Origin: Thermoanaerobaculia bacterium
Lineage (GTDB): Bacteria; Acidobacteriota; Thermoanaerobaculia; Multivoradales; JAHEKO01
Direction: 5' to 3'
Length of the DNA stretch: 55,255 nucleotides
Assembly: GCA_041574955.1 (NCBI GenBank)
Contig: JBFGNS010000006.1
Location: 1 to 55,255 of the forward strand
Shown: piece by piece, positions 44,360-51,098 of the stretch
Layout: the number at the start of each line of letters is the position of its first letter
How positions within the stretch are numbered: the first letter of the stretch is position 1
Translations under genes and position numbers: made by a program
Notes under the pieces: generated by a model
The model's database searches: none
What the model saw: the letters and a program-made list of their open reading frames with translations, nothing else
What the model was told of the DNA's origin: nothing

Positions 44360-46621
44360 TCAGCGCGGCGACAGGTCGGCTAGCAGCAGGGCCGAAAACT
44401 CGGCGTCGCCGGCGTAGGCCGCGAACTCCGGCGCTTGCCGGAACTCCTCGCGCGGATAGCCGGCGCGGATGGCCTGTTCGACCAGCCGCAGCAGGCCCGG
44501 CTTGTCGCCGGCCACGGCGTGGATCTGCGCCGCGTTGTAGAGCAGCTCCGGGTCCTCGGGGCTCTCCGCGACCCGCGCGTCGATGGCCGCCGTGGCCTCG
44601 CGGTGGCGCCCCACCTTGGCGACGCTCAGCAGCCTCAGCGAGACCAACCCCGGCTGCGCCCCGGCCGCCGCAATGCGGCGATCGCAGCTGTCGATCGCCG
44701 CCAGGTACCAGCGGCGCGACTCGGCCTGGTCGCCCAGGCTGGCGTACGCGTCACCCAGGTTGTGCTGGGTCATCGGGTGCTCCGGGTCCATCCGGTAGGC
44801 GTTGAGATAGGCGTCGACCGCTTCGGCCGGCCGGTCGAGATAGAAGTAGACGGTGCCCAGGTTGTTGGCCGCGGGCCGGTAGTCCGGCTGCAGCTCGAGA
44901 ACGCGCTGGAACAGCGGTGCCGCCTCCAGGTAGCGGCCGCTGCGCATGTAGACGATCGCCAGGTTGTTGAGCGCCCCGGCGTGATCCGGAGCGAAGCGAA
45001 TCACCTCGCGGTACTCGAGCGCCGCCTCCTCGAGCCGGCCCAGCCTCGCCAGGGCGGTGGCCAGGGCGTGCCGGGTGTTGACCTGGTCGGCGCCGAGCTC
45101 GACCGCGCGTTCCAGCTCGGCGAGCCCTTCCTCGTGCTGCCCGCGGGCGATCAGCGATTCGCCCAGCAGGATCGGGGCGCGGCTGTCCGCCGGCTCCAAG
45201 CGGTGCGCTTGGCGCGCGGCGTCGACGGCGGTTTCGAAATCGCCGGCGGCACGGGCCAGCTCGGCACGCGCCAGCCACGGGCCGACCACCGGCTCGTCTC
45301 CGCCCTCGGCCTGCTCGACCAGTGCCAGCACCTCCTGCTCCCGGCCGTCCTCGGGGTCGATGCGCTGGCGGGCGGCGAGCAGAGCGGCCAGCTCACCGGC
45401 GAGAAACGCGTTGTTCGGCTCGAGCTCGAGCGCGCGCCGCCAGGTCTGCTCGGCGAGCCGCAGGTTGGTGCGCGTCAACCCGCGTCGCCAGTAGCGCTCG
45501 CCCTGGGTGAACAGCAGACGGGCGTCGGTGTTGGCGATCCGCCCGGCGGCGCGGCGGGCCTCGTTCTCCGCGGAGGCGGACTCGGTCTCGCCGGTGCGCT
45601 CGGGCCACTGGCGCACCACCAGCACCGCCGCCGCGGTCAGCCCGAGGGCGATGACGGCGGCCACCGCCGGCCGGCGCCAGCGCCGCCGTGGCGGCCGACC
45701 GGTGACCACGGAGGTCAGCGGCACGGTGCCTGTGCCCTCGATCTCGCGCCGCAGGTGCATCAGCTCGTTGCGCACGTCCTGCGCCGACTGGTACCGCTGC
45801 TCGGGGCTCTTCTCCAGGCAGTGGCTGATGACCCGCGCCAGGTGGTTCGGCAGGTCGGCCCGCCGGGTGTCGATTTCGCGTGGCGCGTCCTTGAGGATCG
45901 ACGACATCACGGCGAGCGAGCTCGGCCCGCCGAACGGCCGCTGGCCGGTGGCCATCTCGTACAGGATGGTGCCGAGCGAGAAGATGTCCGAGCGGGGATC
46001 GGGCTCGCGTCCCTCGAGCTGCTCGGGCGACATGTACGGCACGGTGCCGACGATCTGGCCGACGGTGGTCAGCGGCTCGGTGAGCAGCTCGGTGGCGTCG
46101 TCGCTGCTGACCGCGGCCTGCAGCTTGGCGAGCCCGAAGTCGAGCACCTTGACGGGGCCGCTCGCCGGCACCACCACGTTGCCCGGCTTGAGGTCGCGGT
46201 GCACGATGCCTTTGGCGTGGGCCGCCGCCAGCGCCTCGGCGAGCGGGATTCCGATGCCGAAGATCCGGCGCAGCGGCATGCCGTCGCGCGGGATGAGCTT
46301 CGACAGCGGTTCTCCATCCACCAGCTCCATGGTCAGAAAGTGGAAGCCGTCGACGTGCTCGACCGAGTGGATCGTCACGATGTTGGGGTGACTGAGGGCT
46401 GCCAGGGAACGTGCCTCGCGCTCGAAGCGGCCCAGCCGCTCGGGGTCGCGGGCGAACTCGGCGGGGAGCACCTTGATCGCGACCTGCCGCCCCAGCCGCG
46501 TGTCCTCGGCCCGGTAGACGACGCCCATGCCGCCGGCGCCGATCTGCTCGAGGACGCGGTAAGCGCCCAGACGCTGGCCGACCAGCTGGGGGTCCTGGGT
46601 GGTGGATCCTTCAGAGGCCAT
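44360..46621 (-). CDS. Hanks-type Ser/Thr protein kinase with TM helix and TPR domain
   Basis: Start ATG 46621. GAGGMG, VAIK, HRDLKPGN, DFG, GTVPYMSPE; TM; TPR repeats (ALNNLA, AANNLG). Confidence 0.95.
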   Translation of the reverse strand: MASEGSTTQDPQLVGQRLGAYRVLEQIGAGGMGVVYRAEDTRLGRQVAIKVLPAEFARDPERLGRFEREARSLAALSHPNIVTIHSVEHVDGFHFLTMELVDGEPLSKLIPRDGMPLRRIFGIGIPLAEALAAAHAKGIVHRDLKPGNVVVPASGPVKVLDFGLAKLQAAVSSDDATELLTEPLTTVGQIVGTVPYMSPEQLEGREPDPRSDIFSLGTILYEMATGQRPFGGPSSLAVMSSILKDAPREIDTRRADLPNHLARVISHCLEKSPEQRYQSAQDVRNELMHLRREIEGTGTVPLTSVVTGRPPRRRWRRPAVAAVIALGLTAAAVLVVRQWPERTGETESASAENEARRAAGRIANTDARLLFTQGERYWRRGLTRTNLRLAEQTWRRALELEPNNAFLAGELAALLAARQRIDPEDGREQEVLALVEQAEGGDEPVVGPWLARAELARAAGDFETAVDAARQAHRLEPADSRAPILLGESLIARGQHEEGLAELERAVELGADQVNTRHALATALARLGRLEEAALEYREVIRFAPDHAGALNNLAIVYMRSGRYLEAAPLFQRVLELQPDYRPAANNLGTVYFYLDRPAEAVDAYLNAYRMDPEHPMTQHNLGDAYASLGDQAESRRWYLAAIDSCDRRIAAAGAQPGLVSLRLLSVAKVGRHREATAAIDARVAESPEDPELLYNAAQIHAVAGDKPGLLRLVEQAIRAGYPREEFRQAPEFAAYAGDAEFSALLLADLSPR

Positions 46622-46873
46622 CAACGACCTCGAGCCCGGCGGTGGCGACTGCCGGGGGTGAAGCTGGAGCCTGGCAGAGGTCTGTCGACCCTGGCCGCTG
46701 TCTGTCGGGCTCGACCCGTTTGCATGCCGACCGGAGCTCCCAGCGGCGGACGCTATCAAAACGAGGCGCGGGCCGCACCGCTCCCGTGCTACGCTCGCCG
46801 TTCGTACGCCCGCAGTGCGATCCGGAGGCTGCCCGCCCCCGGCGAGCCGCAGGGATAGCACAAGGAGACAGCC

Positions 46874-47248
46874 ATCACAGCCAAGATCTTCGTCGGCAAT
46901 CTGAGCTACGACGTCACCCGCGACCGCCTGTCCCAGCTGATGGGCGAGGTGGGTAGCGTTCGCGACATCTACCTTCCCGTCGATCGTGCCACCGGCCGCC
47001 CGCGCGGCTTCGCCTTTGTCGAGTTCTCGCAGTCGGAAGAGGCCGAGCAGGCCATCGAGAAGTTCAACGACTTCGAGCTCGAAGGCCGCCGGCTGCGCGT
47101 CGACGTGGCGGAGGAGCGCCGCCGGCCGCGCCCCGCGGCGCCCTCGATGGACTTCGATGCGCCGGCGGGAGGGCCACGGTTCACCGCCAAGCCGTCTCGC
47201 CCGAAGGGCAGCCGCCGGGGCCTGCGCGGCAAGAAGCGCAGCCTGTAA
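46874..47248 (+). CDS. RRM (RNP-1) RNA-binding protein with probable ATC start codon
   Basis: RNP2 KIFVGNL and RNP1 RGFAFVEF; AAGGAG 6 nt before ATC 46874; in-frame TAG at 46856. Confidence 0.9.
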   Translation: MTAKIFVGNLSYDVTRDRLSQLMGEVGSVRDIYLPVDRATGRPRGFAFVEFSQSEEAEQAIEKFNDFELEGRRLRVDVAEERRRPRPAAPSMDFDAPAGGPRFTAKPSRPKGSRRGLRGKKRSL

Positions 47249-47315
47249 CCGCGCCTCCGCCCACGGATCCAGCGGGCGCCGGTCCCGATCGTTTAGCCGG
47301 CGAGGGTCGTCTCGG

Positions 47316-47332
47316 GTGACAGGTTTTGTCAC
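47316..47332. promoter_or_regulatory. Palindrome GTGACA-N5-TGTCAC, candidate enhancer (UAS) for a sigma-54 activator
   Basis: Dyad about 75-90 nt upstream of the -24 element. Confidence 0.5.
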
Positions 47333-47405
47333 TCCAACGGCCGATAGAGGCCTTTCGATCAGTCCTAAACCCCTGATCGAAAAGGGTTTGGGCGCATTGC
47401 GCCAG

Positions 47406-47421
47406 TGGCACCCGTCTTGCT
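47406..47421 (+). promoter_or_regulatory. Sigma-54 (-24/-12) promoter
   Basis: TGGCAC-ccgtc-TTGCT matches TGGCAC-N5-TTGCW, 28 nt before ATG 47450. Confidence 0.8.
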
Positions 47422-47449
47422 CGCATGGAGTTTGCGTTTGGAGGCGACC

Positions 47450-48034
47450 ATGCGAAACCGAATCGACATTCGATACCGCCGCGAGCGGTCGCGCAGGCTG
47501 TCCGTGGCGGCCGAGGCTCTCGGGCGCGGCGCGCCGGCGCGACAGGCCCTGCTGGCGACCGCCTTGCTGACGGCCCTGGCGCTGGCCTTGGCGGCTCCGG
47601 CAGGCGCCGCTTCCGGCGTCACCACCGCCAACTCGGTGGCCTGGGCGGTCAGCCAGGTCAACGCCTCGACGACCAGTCAGGTCTGGCAGGGCGTGCCCGA
47701 GATGACCGTCAACGTGACCCTCAAGAAGACCGCCGACCTGATCATCGACTACTGTTCCGAGGCCATCACCGATCCCGGCGAGATCCAGCTGGTGAGGGTC
47801 GCGGTCGGTGCCGGCAGCTTCGCCTCACCGGACGGTGCCGGCGGCGGCGGCGTGATCTACGCCTACGACAACTCGAGCTACCTCAACGACGTCCAGTGCA
47901 TGACCTGGGTCTATCAGGGCCTCGCCCCGGGCACTCACCCGGTGTCGGTCGAGTGGCGGTCGTGGAACGGCGCCCGGGTCTACACCGCCTGGCGGTCGAT
48001 GAAAGTGCTGTTCGACAGCAACGCCAAGCCGTAG
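47450..48034 (+). CDS. Secreted hypothetical protein (beta-rich, two Cys)
   Basis: GGAGG RBS before ATG 47450; long basic n-region then hydrophobic h-region ending AGA-A. Confidence 0.7.
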   Translation: MRNRIDIRYRRERSRRLSVAAEALGRGAPARQALLATALLTALALALAAPAGAASGVTTANSVAWAVSQVNASTTSQVWQGVPEMTVNVTLKKTADLIIDYCSEAITDPGEIQLVRVAVGAGSFASPDGAGGGGVIYAYDNSSYLNDVQCMTWVYQGLAPGTHPVSVEWRSWNGARVYTAWRSMKVLFDSNAKP

Positions 48035-48098
48035 CGCCGGGCGGCAGCGCGCGCCGGAGCGCGGCATCTGAGACACTAGACGTCCGGAGGCCGCCGCC

Positions 48099-48470
48099 AT
48101 GCCCGACCCGCTCTCGACCCTGCCTTTCGATCTGTTCTGGGGCTGGCTGCTGCGCCACCCCAACTGCATCCTGCGCGCCGGCACTCCCGAGGCGGTGCTG
48201 TACGACGACGAGGACCTGCACTGGCACTTCGCCGTCGACGGCGCGGTCTACTTCGTCCAGGTCATCCGCGGCAAGCGGCTGATGGGCGAGATCGCGCTGG
48301 AGACCGAGCGCATTGCCTACGTGCAGGCGCTGGGAGAGGAGCAGGAGGGCGAGTTCCTGTTCGAGCTGGTCAGCGAAAGCGAGACCGAGCGGGTGGCGGC
48401 TTTCTTCTTCGTCCTGTCGCACGCCTACGACGAGGGTGAGTCGAGCGGCCCGGAGCACGCCGTCCACTAG
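48099..48470 (+). CDS. Hypothetical acidic cytoplasmic protein
   Basis: GGAGG RBS; FW.WL..HPNCILRAGTP motif. Confidence 0.7.
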   Translation: MPDPLSTLPFDLFWGWLLRHPNCILRAGTPEAVLYDDEDLHWHFAVDGAVYFVQVIRGKRLMGEIALETERIAYVQALGEEQEGEFLFELVSESETERVAAFFFVLSHAYDEGESSGPEHAVH

Positions 48471-48497
48471 CCGTGGCGCGGCGCCTCGTGCCGCCGG

Positions 48498-48537
48498 AAA
48501 GAAAAAGTCCCGTGCCGGGGAGGGAACCGGCACGGGA
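48498..48537 (-). terminator. Intrinsic terminator on minus strand
   Basis: tcccgtgccgg/ccggcacggga stem (48508-48537) followed on minus strand by CTTTTTCTTT. Confidence 0.75.
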
Positions 48538-48612
48538 GGAGGAGAGGGAGCTTAAGGAGACAGCGGGGTGGTAGCCCCGATGGCGGGTCAGCTCCCGGTG
48601 CCCGCCTCAGAG
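48498..48612 (-). ncRNA. Candidate small regulatory RNA (~115 nt) with CU-rich anti-SD tracts
   Basis: Two hairpins, single-stranded CUCCUU/CUCCCUCUCCUCC tract, terminal 11-bp stem plus U-run; ECF-like promoter upstream. Confidence 0.55.
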
Positions 48613-48618
48613 GTTAAT

Positions 48619-48645
48619 AACGTTGCGGACAGCCTTGCGGATTCC
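48619..48645 (-). promoter_or_regulatory. ECF-sigma-like promoter GGAAT-N18-CGTT
   Basis: Reverse complement reads GGAAT ccgcaaggctgtccgcaa CGTT, pointing into the candidate sRNA. Confidence 0.45.
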
Positions 48646-48686
48646 CGGTCGGGGAAAAAAGGTCCCCGGCCTGTAGCATCGGGCGC

Positions 48687-49661
48687 GTGAGGGTCTTCGT
48701 CACCGGCGGCACCGGCTACATCGGTCTCGCCCTGTGCCGCGCGCTCGCCGCGCGTGGCGACGAAGTGGCGGCGCTGGTGCGGCCGACCAGCCGAACCGCC
48801 CCCCTCGCCGAGCTGGGGGCGGGGCTTTTTGTCGGCGACATCACCGACCGCTACTCGATGCGCGAGGCGATGTCCGGCGCCGACTGGGTGGTGCACGCCG
48901 CCGCCGAGCTCGACTTCGGTGCGCCGACCGGCCGGATCCGGGCGGCCAACGTGGACGGCTCCCGCAACGTCGCCTCGCTGGCCTGGAAGCTGGGAGTGGG
49001 CCGGGTGCTGGCGGTGTCTTCGATCGCCCGCTTCGGCGGCAGCCCGGCGGACGGCCGGCCGGGCGACGAGGAGTCGCCGCTGCTGCCGCCGCCGAGCCGC
49101 TACTCGGCCACCAAGCGCGCCGGCGAGCTGGCGATGCGCGAGGTGGCCGAGCGCGAGGGGCTGAAGCTGAACGTGGTCTACCCGAGCCTGGTGTACGGCG
49201 CTCCCGGCAGGAAGGGCGGCGCCAACCTGATCCTGAGGGCGGTGCTCGAACGCCGCTGGCCGGCGGTGGTGGGAGCCCGCCGGCGTATGAGCTGGATCCA
49301 CCTGGACGACCTGGTGACGGCGATGCTCGCCATCCTCGATGGCGCGCCGCCGGCTCGCGATTACCTACTGGCGGGAGACGCCGCCCCGCTGGGCGAGGTG
49401 CTCGAGCAGGTGGCGCGGCTCGGCGGCGTGGCGCCGCCGCGGCTGCGGCTGCCGCTGCCCGTCGGCCTCGCCCTGGCCGCGGTCACCTCTCCCTTCTACC
49501 GCCGCCGCGGCCGGCGGCCGCCGCTCAACGCCGACCAGCTCCGCAGCCTGGCCCGCAGCTGGGAGTTCGACGATGCGCGGGCGCGGCGCGAGCTGGATTG
49601 GAAGCCGCGTACCCTCGCCGAAGGGCTGCCGCCCACCGTCGACTACCTGCGCCGCTCGTGA
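48687..49661 (+). CDS. NAD-dependent epimerase/dehydratase (extended SDR, HpnA-like)
   Basis: TGGTGYIG, HAAA, YSATK catalytic motif. Confidence 0.9.
   Translation: MRVFVTGGTGYIGLALCRALAARGDEVAALVRPTSRTAPLAELGAGLFVGDITDRYSMREAMSGADWVVHAAAELDFGAPTGRIRAANVDGSRNVASLAWKLGVGRVLAVSSIARFGGSPADGRPGDEESPLLPPPSRYSATKRAGELAMREVAEREGLKLNVVYPSLVYGAPGRKGGANLILRAVLERRWPAVVGARRRMSWIHLDDLVTAMLAILDGAPPARDYLLAGDAAPLGEVLEQVARLGGVAPPRLRLPLPVGLALAAVTSPFYRRRGRRPPLNADQLRSLARSWEFDDARARRELDWKPRTLAEGLPPTVDYLRRS

Positions 49662-49823: not shown

Positions 49824-51098
<1,275 letters not shown>

Follow-up and report, generated by a model that had tools for sequence, protein, structure and literature searches.

A conserved small RNA gene with anti-Shine-Dalgarno motifs and a stress-type promoter motif in Thermoanaerobaculia

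The sequence analysed here (the window) is the 55,255-nt stretch from position 1 to 55,255 of contig JBFGNS010000006.1, which belongs to a metagenome-assembled genome (MAG) of a Thermoanaerobaculia bacterium in the phylum Acidobacteriota (GCA_041574955.1; 290 contigs, 89% complete, 72.5% G+C). In all likelihood, the window carries a real, conserved, and structured small RNA (sRNA) gene on its minus strand, with a predicted transcript of ~113 nt (48498..48612), and the gene is very probably previously undescribed. The best reading of its function, held here with moderate confidence, is that of a stress-induced, Hfq-type sRNA whose pyrimidine-rich anti-Shine-Dalgarno (anti-SD) motifs mask ribosome-binding sites (RBSs). 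Its expression, the sigma factor in charge, the targets, and the direction of regulation are what we infer from promoter, structure, and conservation.

A structured RNA gene on the minus strand

The initial annotation of this region had described a minus-strand unit between two plus-strand genes, and every element it listed can be read there. The −35 element GGGAAT (48641..48646, read directly; GGAAT at 48645-48641) is followed after an 18-nt spacer by the −10 element CGTT with its GTT core (48619..48622), and promoter geometry places the predicted 5′ end just downstream. Hairpin 1 (48582..48606) has a stem of 6–7 bp (GGCGGG at 48606-48601 with CCCGCC at 48587-48582) and a 13-nt loop, CACCGGGAGCUGA. 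Hairpin 2 (48564..48579), of 5 bp (CGGGG at 48579-48575 with CCCCG at 48568-48564), varies in sequence and length among species. An unpaired CU-rich tract of 26 nt with anti-SD motifs, CUGUCUCCUUAAGCUCCCUCUCCUCC (48538..48563), leads into an intrinsic terminator (48508..48537), which has an 11-bp stem (48537-48527 with 48518-48508) and presents a further anti-SD motif in its loop, UUCCCUCC (48519-48526). On the 3′ side of the terminator, the minus strand reads CUUUUUCUUU down to 48498; it includes the U-run UUUUUCUUU (48498..48506), which sets the predicted 3′ end and may serve as an Hfq-binding tail.

The terminator is the strongest of six terminator-like sites found by a scan of 46500-49500 (shuffled sequences, mean 1.0). 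The plus-strand side of the same hairpin continues into GGAGGAGG, which has no T-run, so the terminator belongs to the minus strand. For the 113-nt RNA, the predicted folding energy is −51.9 kcal/mol (z = −4.22), a value that none of 200 shuffled sequences equals. The claim that the unit holds no credible open reading frame (ORF) stands as well: 64 of 100 family members lack any ORF running from start to stop inside the RNA, no ORF is conserved, and the spacing of the conserved blocks falls in all three phases (36/31/26), which argues against a small-protein or dual-function gene. Covariance-model and sequence searches found a single copy of the sRNA in its own genome, with neither a second copy nor the 3′ module elsewhere in that genome.

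Family distribution and covariation

With 171 nt of the region as query, BLAST detected it in 30 of 61 related genomes from several families, the 3′ half being 83–93% identical. This tally, like those for transfer-messenger RNA (tmRNA), RRM, CsrA, Hfq, and DnaJ below, includes one unpublished genome (G003), on which no claim hangs. A pattern derived from the conserved 3′ half was then scanned against one genome per prokaryotic species and gave at least 119 stretches. Among the 80 titled matches listed, 78 came from Thermoanaerobaculia/Acidobacteriota MAGs (two of them labelled Holophagales); the remaining two, titled Planctomycetales and Streptomyces, lack the architecture and are false positives. 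After removal of duplicates, at least 106 distinct sequences show the full architecture, and another 17 are either cut by the end of a contig or without the hairpin-1 motif.

The covariance model built on the 106 members matches the window at 48494-48619 with 104 bits (E 2e-24). Matches above 65 bits were confined to the same order, in 19 of 151 genomes of a class sample and 4 of 151 of a phylum sample; outside the order the class sample gave matches of 30–36 bits only, and outside the class the phylum sample gave one match of 32 bits. Of six weak matches inspected, one (L213, genome G186) has the look of a genuine distant relative and a second (L211, G113) is possibly another. The other four (L210, L212, L214, and L215, in G118, G086, G126, and G180; family f16) represent a different CU-rich RNA from another order of the same class. 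This second RNA ends in a terminator and carries a tract, CCUCACCUCCUCCUUUCG, that resembles the 16S rRNA 3′ end; it is a separate candidate family of anti-SD sRNAs. As far as sampled, the sRNA of the window founds a family limited to one order-level group of Thermoanaerobaculia. Nowhere in the window is the gathering score of an Rfam family reached, and the eight sub-threshold matches around the locus all fall far below.

The core of the CU tract, CUCCCUCUCCU, is invariant in the alignment columns across the family, and more than 100 species conserve its flanks at 90% or above. Part of this core stood in the search pattern, so its invariance among those matches is partly by construction; in the BLAST matches, which were found without that pattern, it is likewise 83–93% identical. 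The terminator loop is conserved as YUCCCUCC. Two variants (L076:375-497, minus strand; L116:178-298, plus strand) keep the CU core and the terminator behind an unrelated 5′ domain, and their upstream motif differs (CAAATCCGAT...CCGGATAA), as if the 3′ module were reused under another promoter.

Compensatory changes were found in hairpin 1, hairpin 2, and the terminator. In a MAFFT alignment, 93.5% of the cells are paired and double changes occur in 18 of 30 pairs; none of 500 shuffled alignments reaches any of these measures, and slid registers pair at 40–52%. An alignment of 100 sequences fitted to the model, which leans to the model by construction, pairs 96% of the cells. Compensatory pairs number 7/7 for hairpin 1 in both alignments, 4/5 (MAFFT) and 5/5 (model-fitted) for hairpin 2, and 6/10 in both for the terminator, whose stem is 99% paired in the model-fitted alignment. 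Promoter, hairpins, CU tract, and terminator are thus conserved, with covariation, in more than 100 species, as an independent minus-strand non-coding RNA gene would have them.

The same evidence bears on the strand. The initial annotation had offered, as an alternative, a plus-strand GGA-rich RNA that sponges CsrA, and the plus strand (GGAGGAGGAGAGGGAGCUUAAGGAGACAG) is indeed rich in GGA motifs. Yet the terminator U-run and the conserved promoter lie on the minus strand, and on the minus-strand reading G-U/U-G pairs far exceed A-C/C-A pairs, by 109:31 in the nested helices and by 65:2 in the long-range helix described below. Moreover, of 41 genomes searched for CsrA (PF02599), 1 gave a match and the window's own, 89%-complete MAG gave none, whereas control genomes did match. 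A plus-strand sponge is therefore exceedingly improbable. A sponge of the CsrB/RsmZ type was rejected as well, given the same scarcity of CsrA and the single GGGAG loop motif on the transcribed strand.

An internal helix between hairpin 1 and the CU tract

GGGAG in the hairpin-1 loop is invariant, and the octamer GGGAGYUG of that loop finds its complement, CARCUCCC, in the middle part of the CU tract. In the window, this internal "anti-seed" is GGGAGCUG (48589..48596), which pairs with AGCUCCC at 48552-48546. The long-range helix is 97–98% paired across the family; it was picked unprompted by RNAalifold and also appears in the centroid fold of the window's single sequence. Its variable pair is U-G in 60 sequences, C-G in 18, U-A in 16, another combination in 2, and C-A in none; at the pair beside it, two related sequences have a double change from U-A to C-G. 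Divergent variants keep a helix between the 5′ part and the tract, formed by other bases: GUGAAGGU..GUCGUG with CACGAUGCCUUCAC in L116, GAAGAG with CUCUUC in L076, and GGGAGCUGGUC with GAUUGGCUCCC in L015. Since hairpin 1 itself is backed by covariation, the two helices most likely coexist as a pseudoknot.

The GGGAGYUG/CARCUCCC pairing would fix or mask the middle of the tract, making the RNA partly self-masking, and would leave exposed AAUCUCCUU, UCUCCUCC, and the terminator loop YUCCCUCC. The conserved internal anti-seed helix offers a clear and testable structural hypothesis.

A promoter motif shared with tmRNA and a DnaJ-type gene

A motif of the form G[GA]AA[TAC]-N17/18-NGTT, which was absent from the search pattern, stands 10–14 nt before hairpin 1 in 103 of the 106 members. 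In the window, the sequence at 48645-48619 has the layout of SigH/SigR/SigE-type promoters, namely a −35 GGAA(T/C) and a −10 GTT spaced 17–19 nt apart. The portion of PMC10012870 that deals with these promoters gives the SigH consensus as −35 gGGAAta and −10 t/cGTTgaa, summarised as GGAAT-N18-19-GTT, describes SigH/SigE promoters as GGAAC-N17-18-cGTT, and names dnaJ2 among the targets. The proposal of the initial annotation that an extracytoplasmic function (ECF)-type promoter motif is combined with multiple anti-SD motifs is supported on both counts.

A strict version of the motif, GGAAT[CG]-N15-17-[CTG]GTT, occurs only 19 times in the window's own genome, against 33–41 times in shuffled sequences. 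Three of these matches are in promoter position, namely those ahead of the sRNA, of tmRNA, and of a gene whose product has DnaJ and DnaJ_C domains. At the tmRNA gene (G000:C178:5417-5768, minus strand; locus L154:1560-2400), GGGAATCC-N17-ACGTT lies 30 nt before the mature 5′ end. The motif is found within 90 nt upstream of tmRNA in 23 of 30 relatives (L157-L186), and of the seven misses L179 had only 15 nt of upstream sequence. tmRNA (ssrA) is named in the predicted SigR regulon in the part of PMC4921905 that treats it. A GTTCTTT(G/C) element is conserved in the tmRNA leader, 5–20 nt before the mature 5′ end, in most of the 30 relatives.

The DnaJ-type gene (G000:C33:28018-29019, plus strand; locus L152:915-2023) has no zinc-finger domain match and is accordingly CbpA-like. 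Together with the relatives L237-L265, from which L251 is omitted as belonging to an unpublished genome, it was searched for the motif: a highly conserved GGAATGAA...GGTT/CGTT lies 34–178 nt upstream in 24 of 29 loci, the own one included, and of the other loci one has a match only inside the gene and four have none. The gene is probably a co-member of the same sigma regulon.

The motif shared by the sRNA, the tmRNA gene, and the DnaJ-type gene most likely marks a regulon in which an alternative sigma factor of SigH/SigR/SigE-like specificity responds to proteotoxic or translation stress, and it is quite likely that the sRNA belongs to such a regulon together with these two genes. Genes of quality control or stress with a common motif were found, with tmRNA and the DnaJ-type gene as the only members established besides the sRNA. 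This would be a first sketch of an alternative-sigma stress regulon in the group, recognisable by a simple promoter motif.

The promoter region of the family shows further elements. A palindrome, ATGGGAATCCCCCAT, encloses the −35 box in one subclade, and in another the box is preceded by GATTTTGAACC. These elements were seen in L043, L048, L055, L058, L093, L099, and others, and may be regulator-binding sites or UP-like elements.

Proposed anti-SD action and candidate targets

The favoured reading can be put as a chain of steps. Transcription would start at the GGAAT-N17-19-GTT promoter, of the class read by SigH/SigR/SigE in Actinobacteria. The exposed pyrimidine motifs mirror SD sequences (AAGGAG, GGAGG), and through them the RNA would pair with the RBSs of several mRNAs, probably with the help of Hfq, and block initiation. 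In this way, the RNA would act as the repressing arm of a sigma regulon that is itself activator-only.

Hfq is encoded in 40 of 41 genomes, the window's own included, and the RNA has the features of Hfq-dependent sRNAs, namely a Rho-independent terminator followed by a U-tail in a genome with hfq. In genus g27 (family f8), for which many complete genomes are available, Hfq was found in none of 3 genomes searched (G043, G053, and G087) and the sRNA in none of 21. The genera g40 and g41, sisters of g27, have Hfq and give no model match, so there is no clean correlation between Hfq and the sRNA.

At 22 of 2838 crude gene starts in the own genome, the RBS has at least 9 nt of perfect complementarity to the sRNA. 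The genes of the 20 best-matching RBSs include those for a porin, a TonB receptor plug, PagL, DnaK, isocitrate dehydrogenase, FtsW, and a Mur ligase.

Several observations weigh against the favoured reading. Expression of the sRNA, its transcript ends, and its strand are predictions from sequence; a search for sequencing runs that contain this DNA listed 13 of DNA type and none of RNA. Pfam annotation of the 20 best-matching genes shows no functional theme, in line with the generic nature of anti-SD complementarity, and the gene calls and starts behind the target rankings are crude and home-made. The extended complementarity at the RBSs of gltA and the RRM gene (see below) is not conserved, and the same holds for the epimerase RBS. 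At least 11 invariant nt across families exceed typical mRNA seeds, so that a protein or ribosome ligand also fits. Covariation of the long-range helix is thin, with five of its eight pairs invariant, and the naive P of 0.016 for the absence of C-A is uncorrected for relatedness.

Other such points concern the sigma factor. The own MAG has 32 Sigma70_r2 and 11 zf-HC2 matches, and a search of the 450 nt upstream of the 32 Sigma70_r2 genes in this 89%-complete MAG gave no convincing copy of the motif; two weak GGAAC matches were seen upstream of sigma genes, one of which probably overlaps the start codon. No cognate pair of sigma and anti-sigma factor was identified in the MAG. The ORFs 3′ of other strict matches, a 188-aa ORF on contig C74 and a glyoxalase-domain ORF on contig C7, are not persuasive as further members, and dnaK has coding sequence upstream of it, not the motif. 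Finally, tmRNA would fit poorly in a regulon induced by stress alone, so that a non-ECF sigma factor may be the one that reads the motif.

The high conservation of the CU tract and the lack of a coherent target set also fit a different role, in which the RNA would not pair with mRNAs but, by offering four scaffolded CU motifs, would sequester the 30S subunit or a pyrimidine-binding protein (S1, Hfq, or a protein of the KH, cold-shock, or RRM type). An invariant CUCCCUCUCCU with such conserved flanks in so many species goes beyond the usual mRNA seed, the CU motif is repeated in the linker and the terminator loop, and most genomes of the group (57 of 61) encode an RRM protein whose tail is rich in arginine. 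However, part of the invariance was built in by the search pattern, and the RRM gene is not syntenic with the RNA. The motifs exactly mirror SD sequences, for which mRNA pairing is the simplest explanation, and known anti-SD sRNAs of the alpha-r14/NfeR1 kind also have ultraconserved motifs, as the relevant part of PMC10746234 reports. Sequestration, as judged from these sequence features, is rather unlikely.

About as doubtful is a broader function, in which the RNA, instead of a common sRNA with specific targets, would be a self-masked SD/anti-SD device serving as a general brake on translation initiation, beside tmRNA and a co-chaperone in one sigma regulon. The GGGAGYUG/CU-tract pseudoknot would keep the RNA shut, and stress, a helicase, Hfq, or a ligand would release it; once open, the RNA would titrate SD sites at large or compete for them with the 16S rRNA 3′ end. 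If this were true, ribosome rescue, protein folding, and initiation control would be coupled, in a phylum without a studied riboregulator.

The RRM gene and the proposed local circuit

The initial annotation had also suggested a local regulatory circuit between the sRNA and a gene for an RNA recognition motif (RRM) protein, based on an exact complement between the two. This gene (46862..47248, plus strand, with its RBS) starts at an ATC codon at 46874; the RBS contains the 10-mer AAGGAGACAG at 46862-46871, 2 nt before the ATC, and the product read from the ATC matches Pfam RRM_1 over positions 1–70 of 70. An in-frame TAG at 46856-46858 is followed by no ATG, GTG, or TTG before the domain, so the gene must start at ATC 46874. 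The complementarity was confirmed and proved to be 11 nt long, AAGGAGACAGC (46862-46872) with GCUGUCUCCUU of the sRNA tract. The genome has five copies of the 10-mer, one within the sRNA gene and four at RBSs (the RRM gene, S5/rpsE, a sheath-like protein gene, and a 61-aa ORF). When the 26-nt tract by itself was scored with RNAduplex against crude gene starts, the equally crude ranking put the RRM RBS 32nd of 2839. By these two measures, the RRM match is better than a generic SD match.

That the main job of the sRNA is to repress this neighbour through CUGUCUCCUU(GC) on its RBS is nevertheless quite improbable. In its favour, the perfect match covers the SD and ends 1 nt before the ATC, the two genes are 1.3–1.7 kb apart, and the weak ATC start would make the RRM gene sensitive to occlusion of its RBS. 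However, the CUGU that precedes CUCCUU in the sRNA and takes part in the match is specific to the own genome, the family consensus being ACAAUCUCCUU, and both the segment and the match are missing from G002, a genome of the same genus. In 15 relatives, the longest complementarity between the RRM RBS and the own sRNA averages 5.47 nt for cognate pairs vs 5.63 nt for mismatched ones. The RRM orthologues, present in 57 of the 61 genomes searched, lie on other contigs or, where both genes share one contig, 68–237 kb from the sRNA, and in none of 29 relatives is the RRM gene within 1.5 kb. As for the other three genes with the 10-mer, they just have strong SDs. The circuit is thus not supported as the core function, and the RRM gene does not count among the conserved parts of the system; going by these comparisons, the match may mark a target particular to this lineage or be coincidental, and is unlikely to be what the family exists for.

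The RRM gene has features of its own. The ATC lies 6 nt after an AAGGAG SD, and by eye, 16 of 20 orthologues (L187-L206) carry ATC or ATT in that position and four ATG; this conserved non-AUG start hints at control at the level of the start codon (of the initiation factor 3 type). The protein has an arginine-rich tail. Divergent from the gene lies a Ser/Thr protein kinase gene with C-terminal tetratricopeptide repeats (44360-~46700, minus strand), whose stop-to-stop frame extends spuriously through the RRM gene, as a 5′ extension on the evidence of Pfam.

Neighbouring genes and a cis-acting alternative

On one side of the sRNA, an unannotatable plus-strand ORF ends at 48470. On the other, an NAD-dependent epimerase gene (48674..49661, plus strand; GTG at 48687; Pfam Epimerase, E 1e-32) is divergent from the sRNA and is followed, as the second gene of a syntenic block, by a citrate synthase gene (49825..51098, plus strand; ATG at 49825, SD GGAGGGAG; Pfam Citrate_synt, E 1.5e-136). 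The sRNA is transcribed away from this pair. In 29 relatives, the terminator side of the sRNA has no conserved neighbour.

The promoter side is more constant, and this raises the alternative that the locus is mainly a cis-acting element, in which activity of the sRNA promoter itself, or pairing of the RNA with antisense read-through transcripts from the plus strand, would set the expression of epimerase and citrate synthase. Of the 29 relatives, 15 have the epimerase gene next to the sRNA and 16 have citrate synthase no more than 1.5 kb from it; only ~40–80 nt separate the sRNA −35 element from the epimerase start, −10-like hexamers stand 7–8 nt before epimerase starts that lack an SD, and no plus-strand terminator was found between the end of the upstream gene (48470) and the sRNA region. 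Against this, the RNA's own structure and its CU tract are conserved, beyond what a promoter alone would need; in the same-genus locus L015, the RNA is in tandem with, not divergent from, the epimerase gene; and in L012, L014, and L016 the epimerase gene is missing and citrate synthase is the neighbour. The synteny may be mere inheritance. A mainly cis-acting role is accordingly improbable, and masking of RBSs in trans by an anti-SD sRNA is preferred.

The epimerase start deserves a remark in itself. The gene has no SD, and a −10-like TAGCAT (48674-48679) stands 7 nt before its start; in relatives, TACAAT- or TAGACT-like hexamers are found 7–8 nt before the SD-less start (TACAAT in L019 and L020; also L023 and others). 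From these hexamers, the epimerase mRNA is probably leaderless, with its promoter back to back with that of the sRNA.

Comparison with known regulatory RNAs and sigma regulons

A literature search for small RNAs of Acidobacteria with anti-Shine-Dalgarno motifs and for sRNAs of Thermoanaerobaculia found no description of a Thermoanaerobaculia sRNA. Acidobacteriota are among the most abundant bacteria of soils and sediments. The family described here, with a covariance model and more than 100 members, is well supported and ready for Rfam.

In mode of action, the RNA may be most like the alpha-r14/cuckoo RNAs, such as NfeR1 of Sinorhizobium meliloti and CcsR1-4 of Rhodobacter sphaeroides, by analogy of their motifs. 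Both have several ultraconserved, unpaired, CU-rich anti-SD motifs, and the stress-sigma promoter of CcsR finds a counterpart in the stress-type promoter motif here. According to the parts of PMC8034643 and PMC10746234 that treat CcsR, it has a stress (RpoHI/RpoHII) promoter, is induced by heat and oxidative stress, and carries motifs that are thought to target many mRNAs. In contrast to these RNAs, most motifs here lie in a single-stranded linker and the hairpin-1 loop (GGGAGYUG) has the opposite sense; the phylum and the promoter class also differ, each genome has one copy, and there is no DUF1127 neighbour. Cuckoo RNAs are defined, in the section of PMC4615179 that introduces them, by two to four adjacent hairpins, each with CCUCCUCCC in its loop; a word search of that paper found no mention of Acidobacteria. 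That motif is present in the window's linker, where the family consensus is CCUCCCCCC. The RNA is not a cuckoo RNA by that definition, as the hairpin-1 loop is GGGAGYUG, the hairpin-2 loop is variable, and among the loops the CU motif occurs only in that of the terminator (YUCCCUCC). Membership in ar14 (RF02344), the best sub-threshold Rfam match, was rejected as well, at 17 bits against a gathering score of 58.8 (E 0.68).

RsaE/RoxS of Firmicutes use C-rich unpaired motifs to pair with SD regions, are linked to redox stress, and target mRNAs of the tricarboxylic acid (TCA) cycle. The sRNA of the window likewise lies beside a citrate synthase gene, and the RBS of isocitrate dehydrogenase has a 10-nt match to it, a TCA link that is made by neighbourhood and one generic match only. 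Unlike in RsaE/RoxS, the motif is not CCCC, and architecture and regulators differ; there is no homology and no Rfam match between the two.

Alternative sigma factors of the ECF kind are known to drive repressor sRNAs: MicA, RybB, and MicL of enterobacteria depend on sigma-E, and GsrN of Caulobacter depends on EcfG, their seeds being 5′-terminal or loop sequences directed at specific mRNAs. The likeness lies in the logic, where an activator-only alternative sigma factor drives an Hfq-type sRNA as its repressing arm, a dependence that is predicted for the present RNA. In sequence and structure there is no similarity, and generic anti-SD repeats and a GGAAT...GTT promoter are found here instead.

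The promoter points to the actinobacterial SigH/SigR/SigE regulons. Boxes and spacing agree, and the contents overlap, with ssrA under SigR and dnaJ2 under SigH/SigE set against tmRNA and a DnaJ-type gene here, although the phylum differs and no cognate pair of sigma and anti-sigma factor was identified in the present MAG.

To our knowledge, no SigH/SigR-dependent anti-SD sRNA has been described. If the anti-SD mechanism holds, the solution found by alpha-r14/cuckoo RNAs, RsaE, and the csRNAs would have arisen independently in another phylum.

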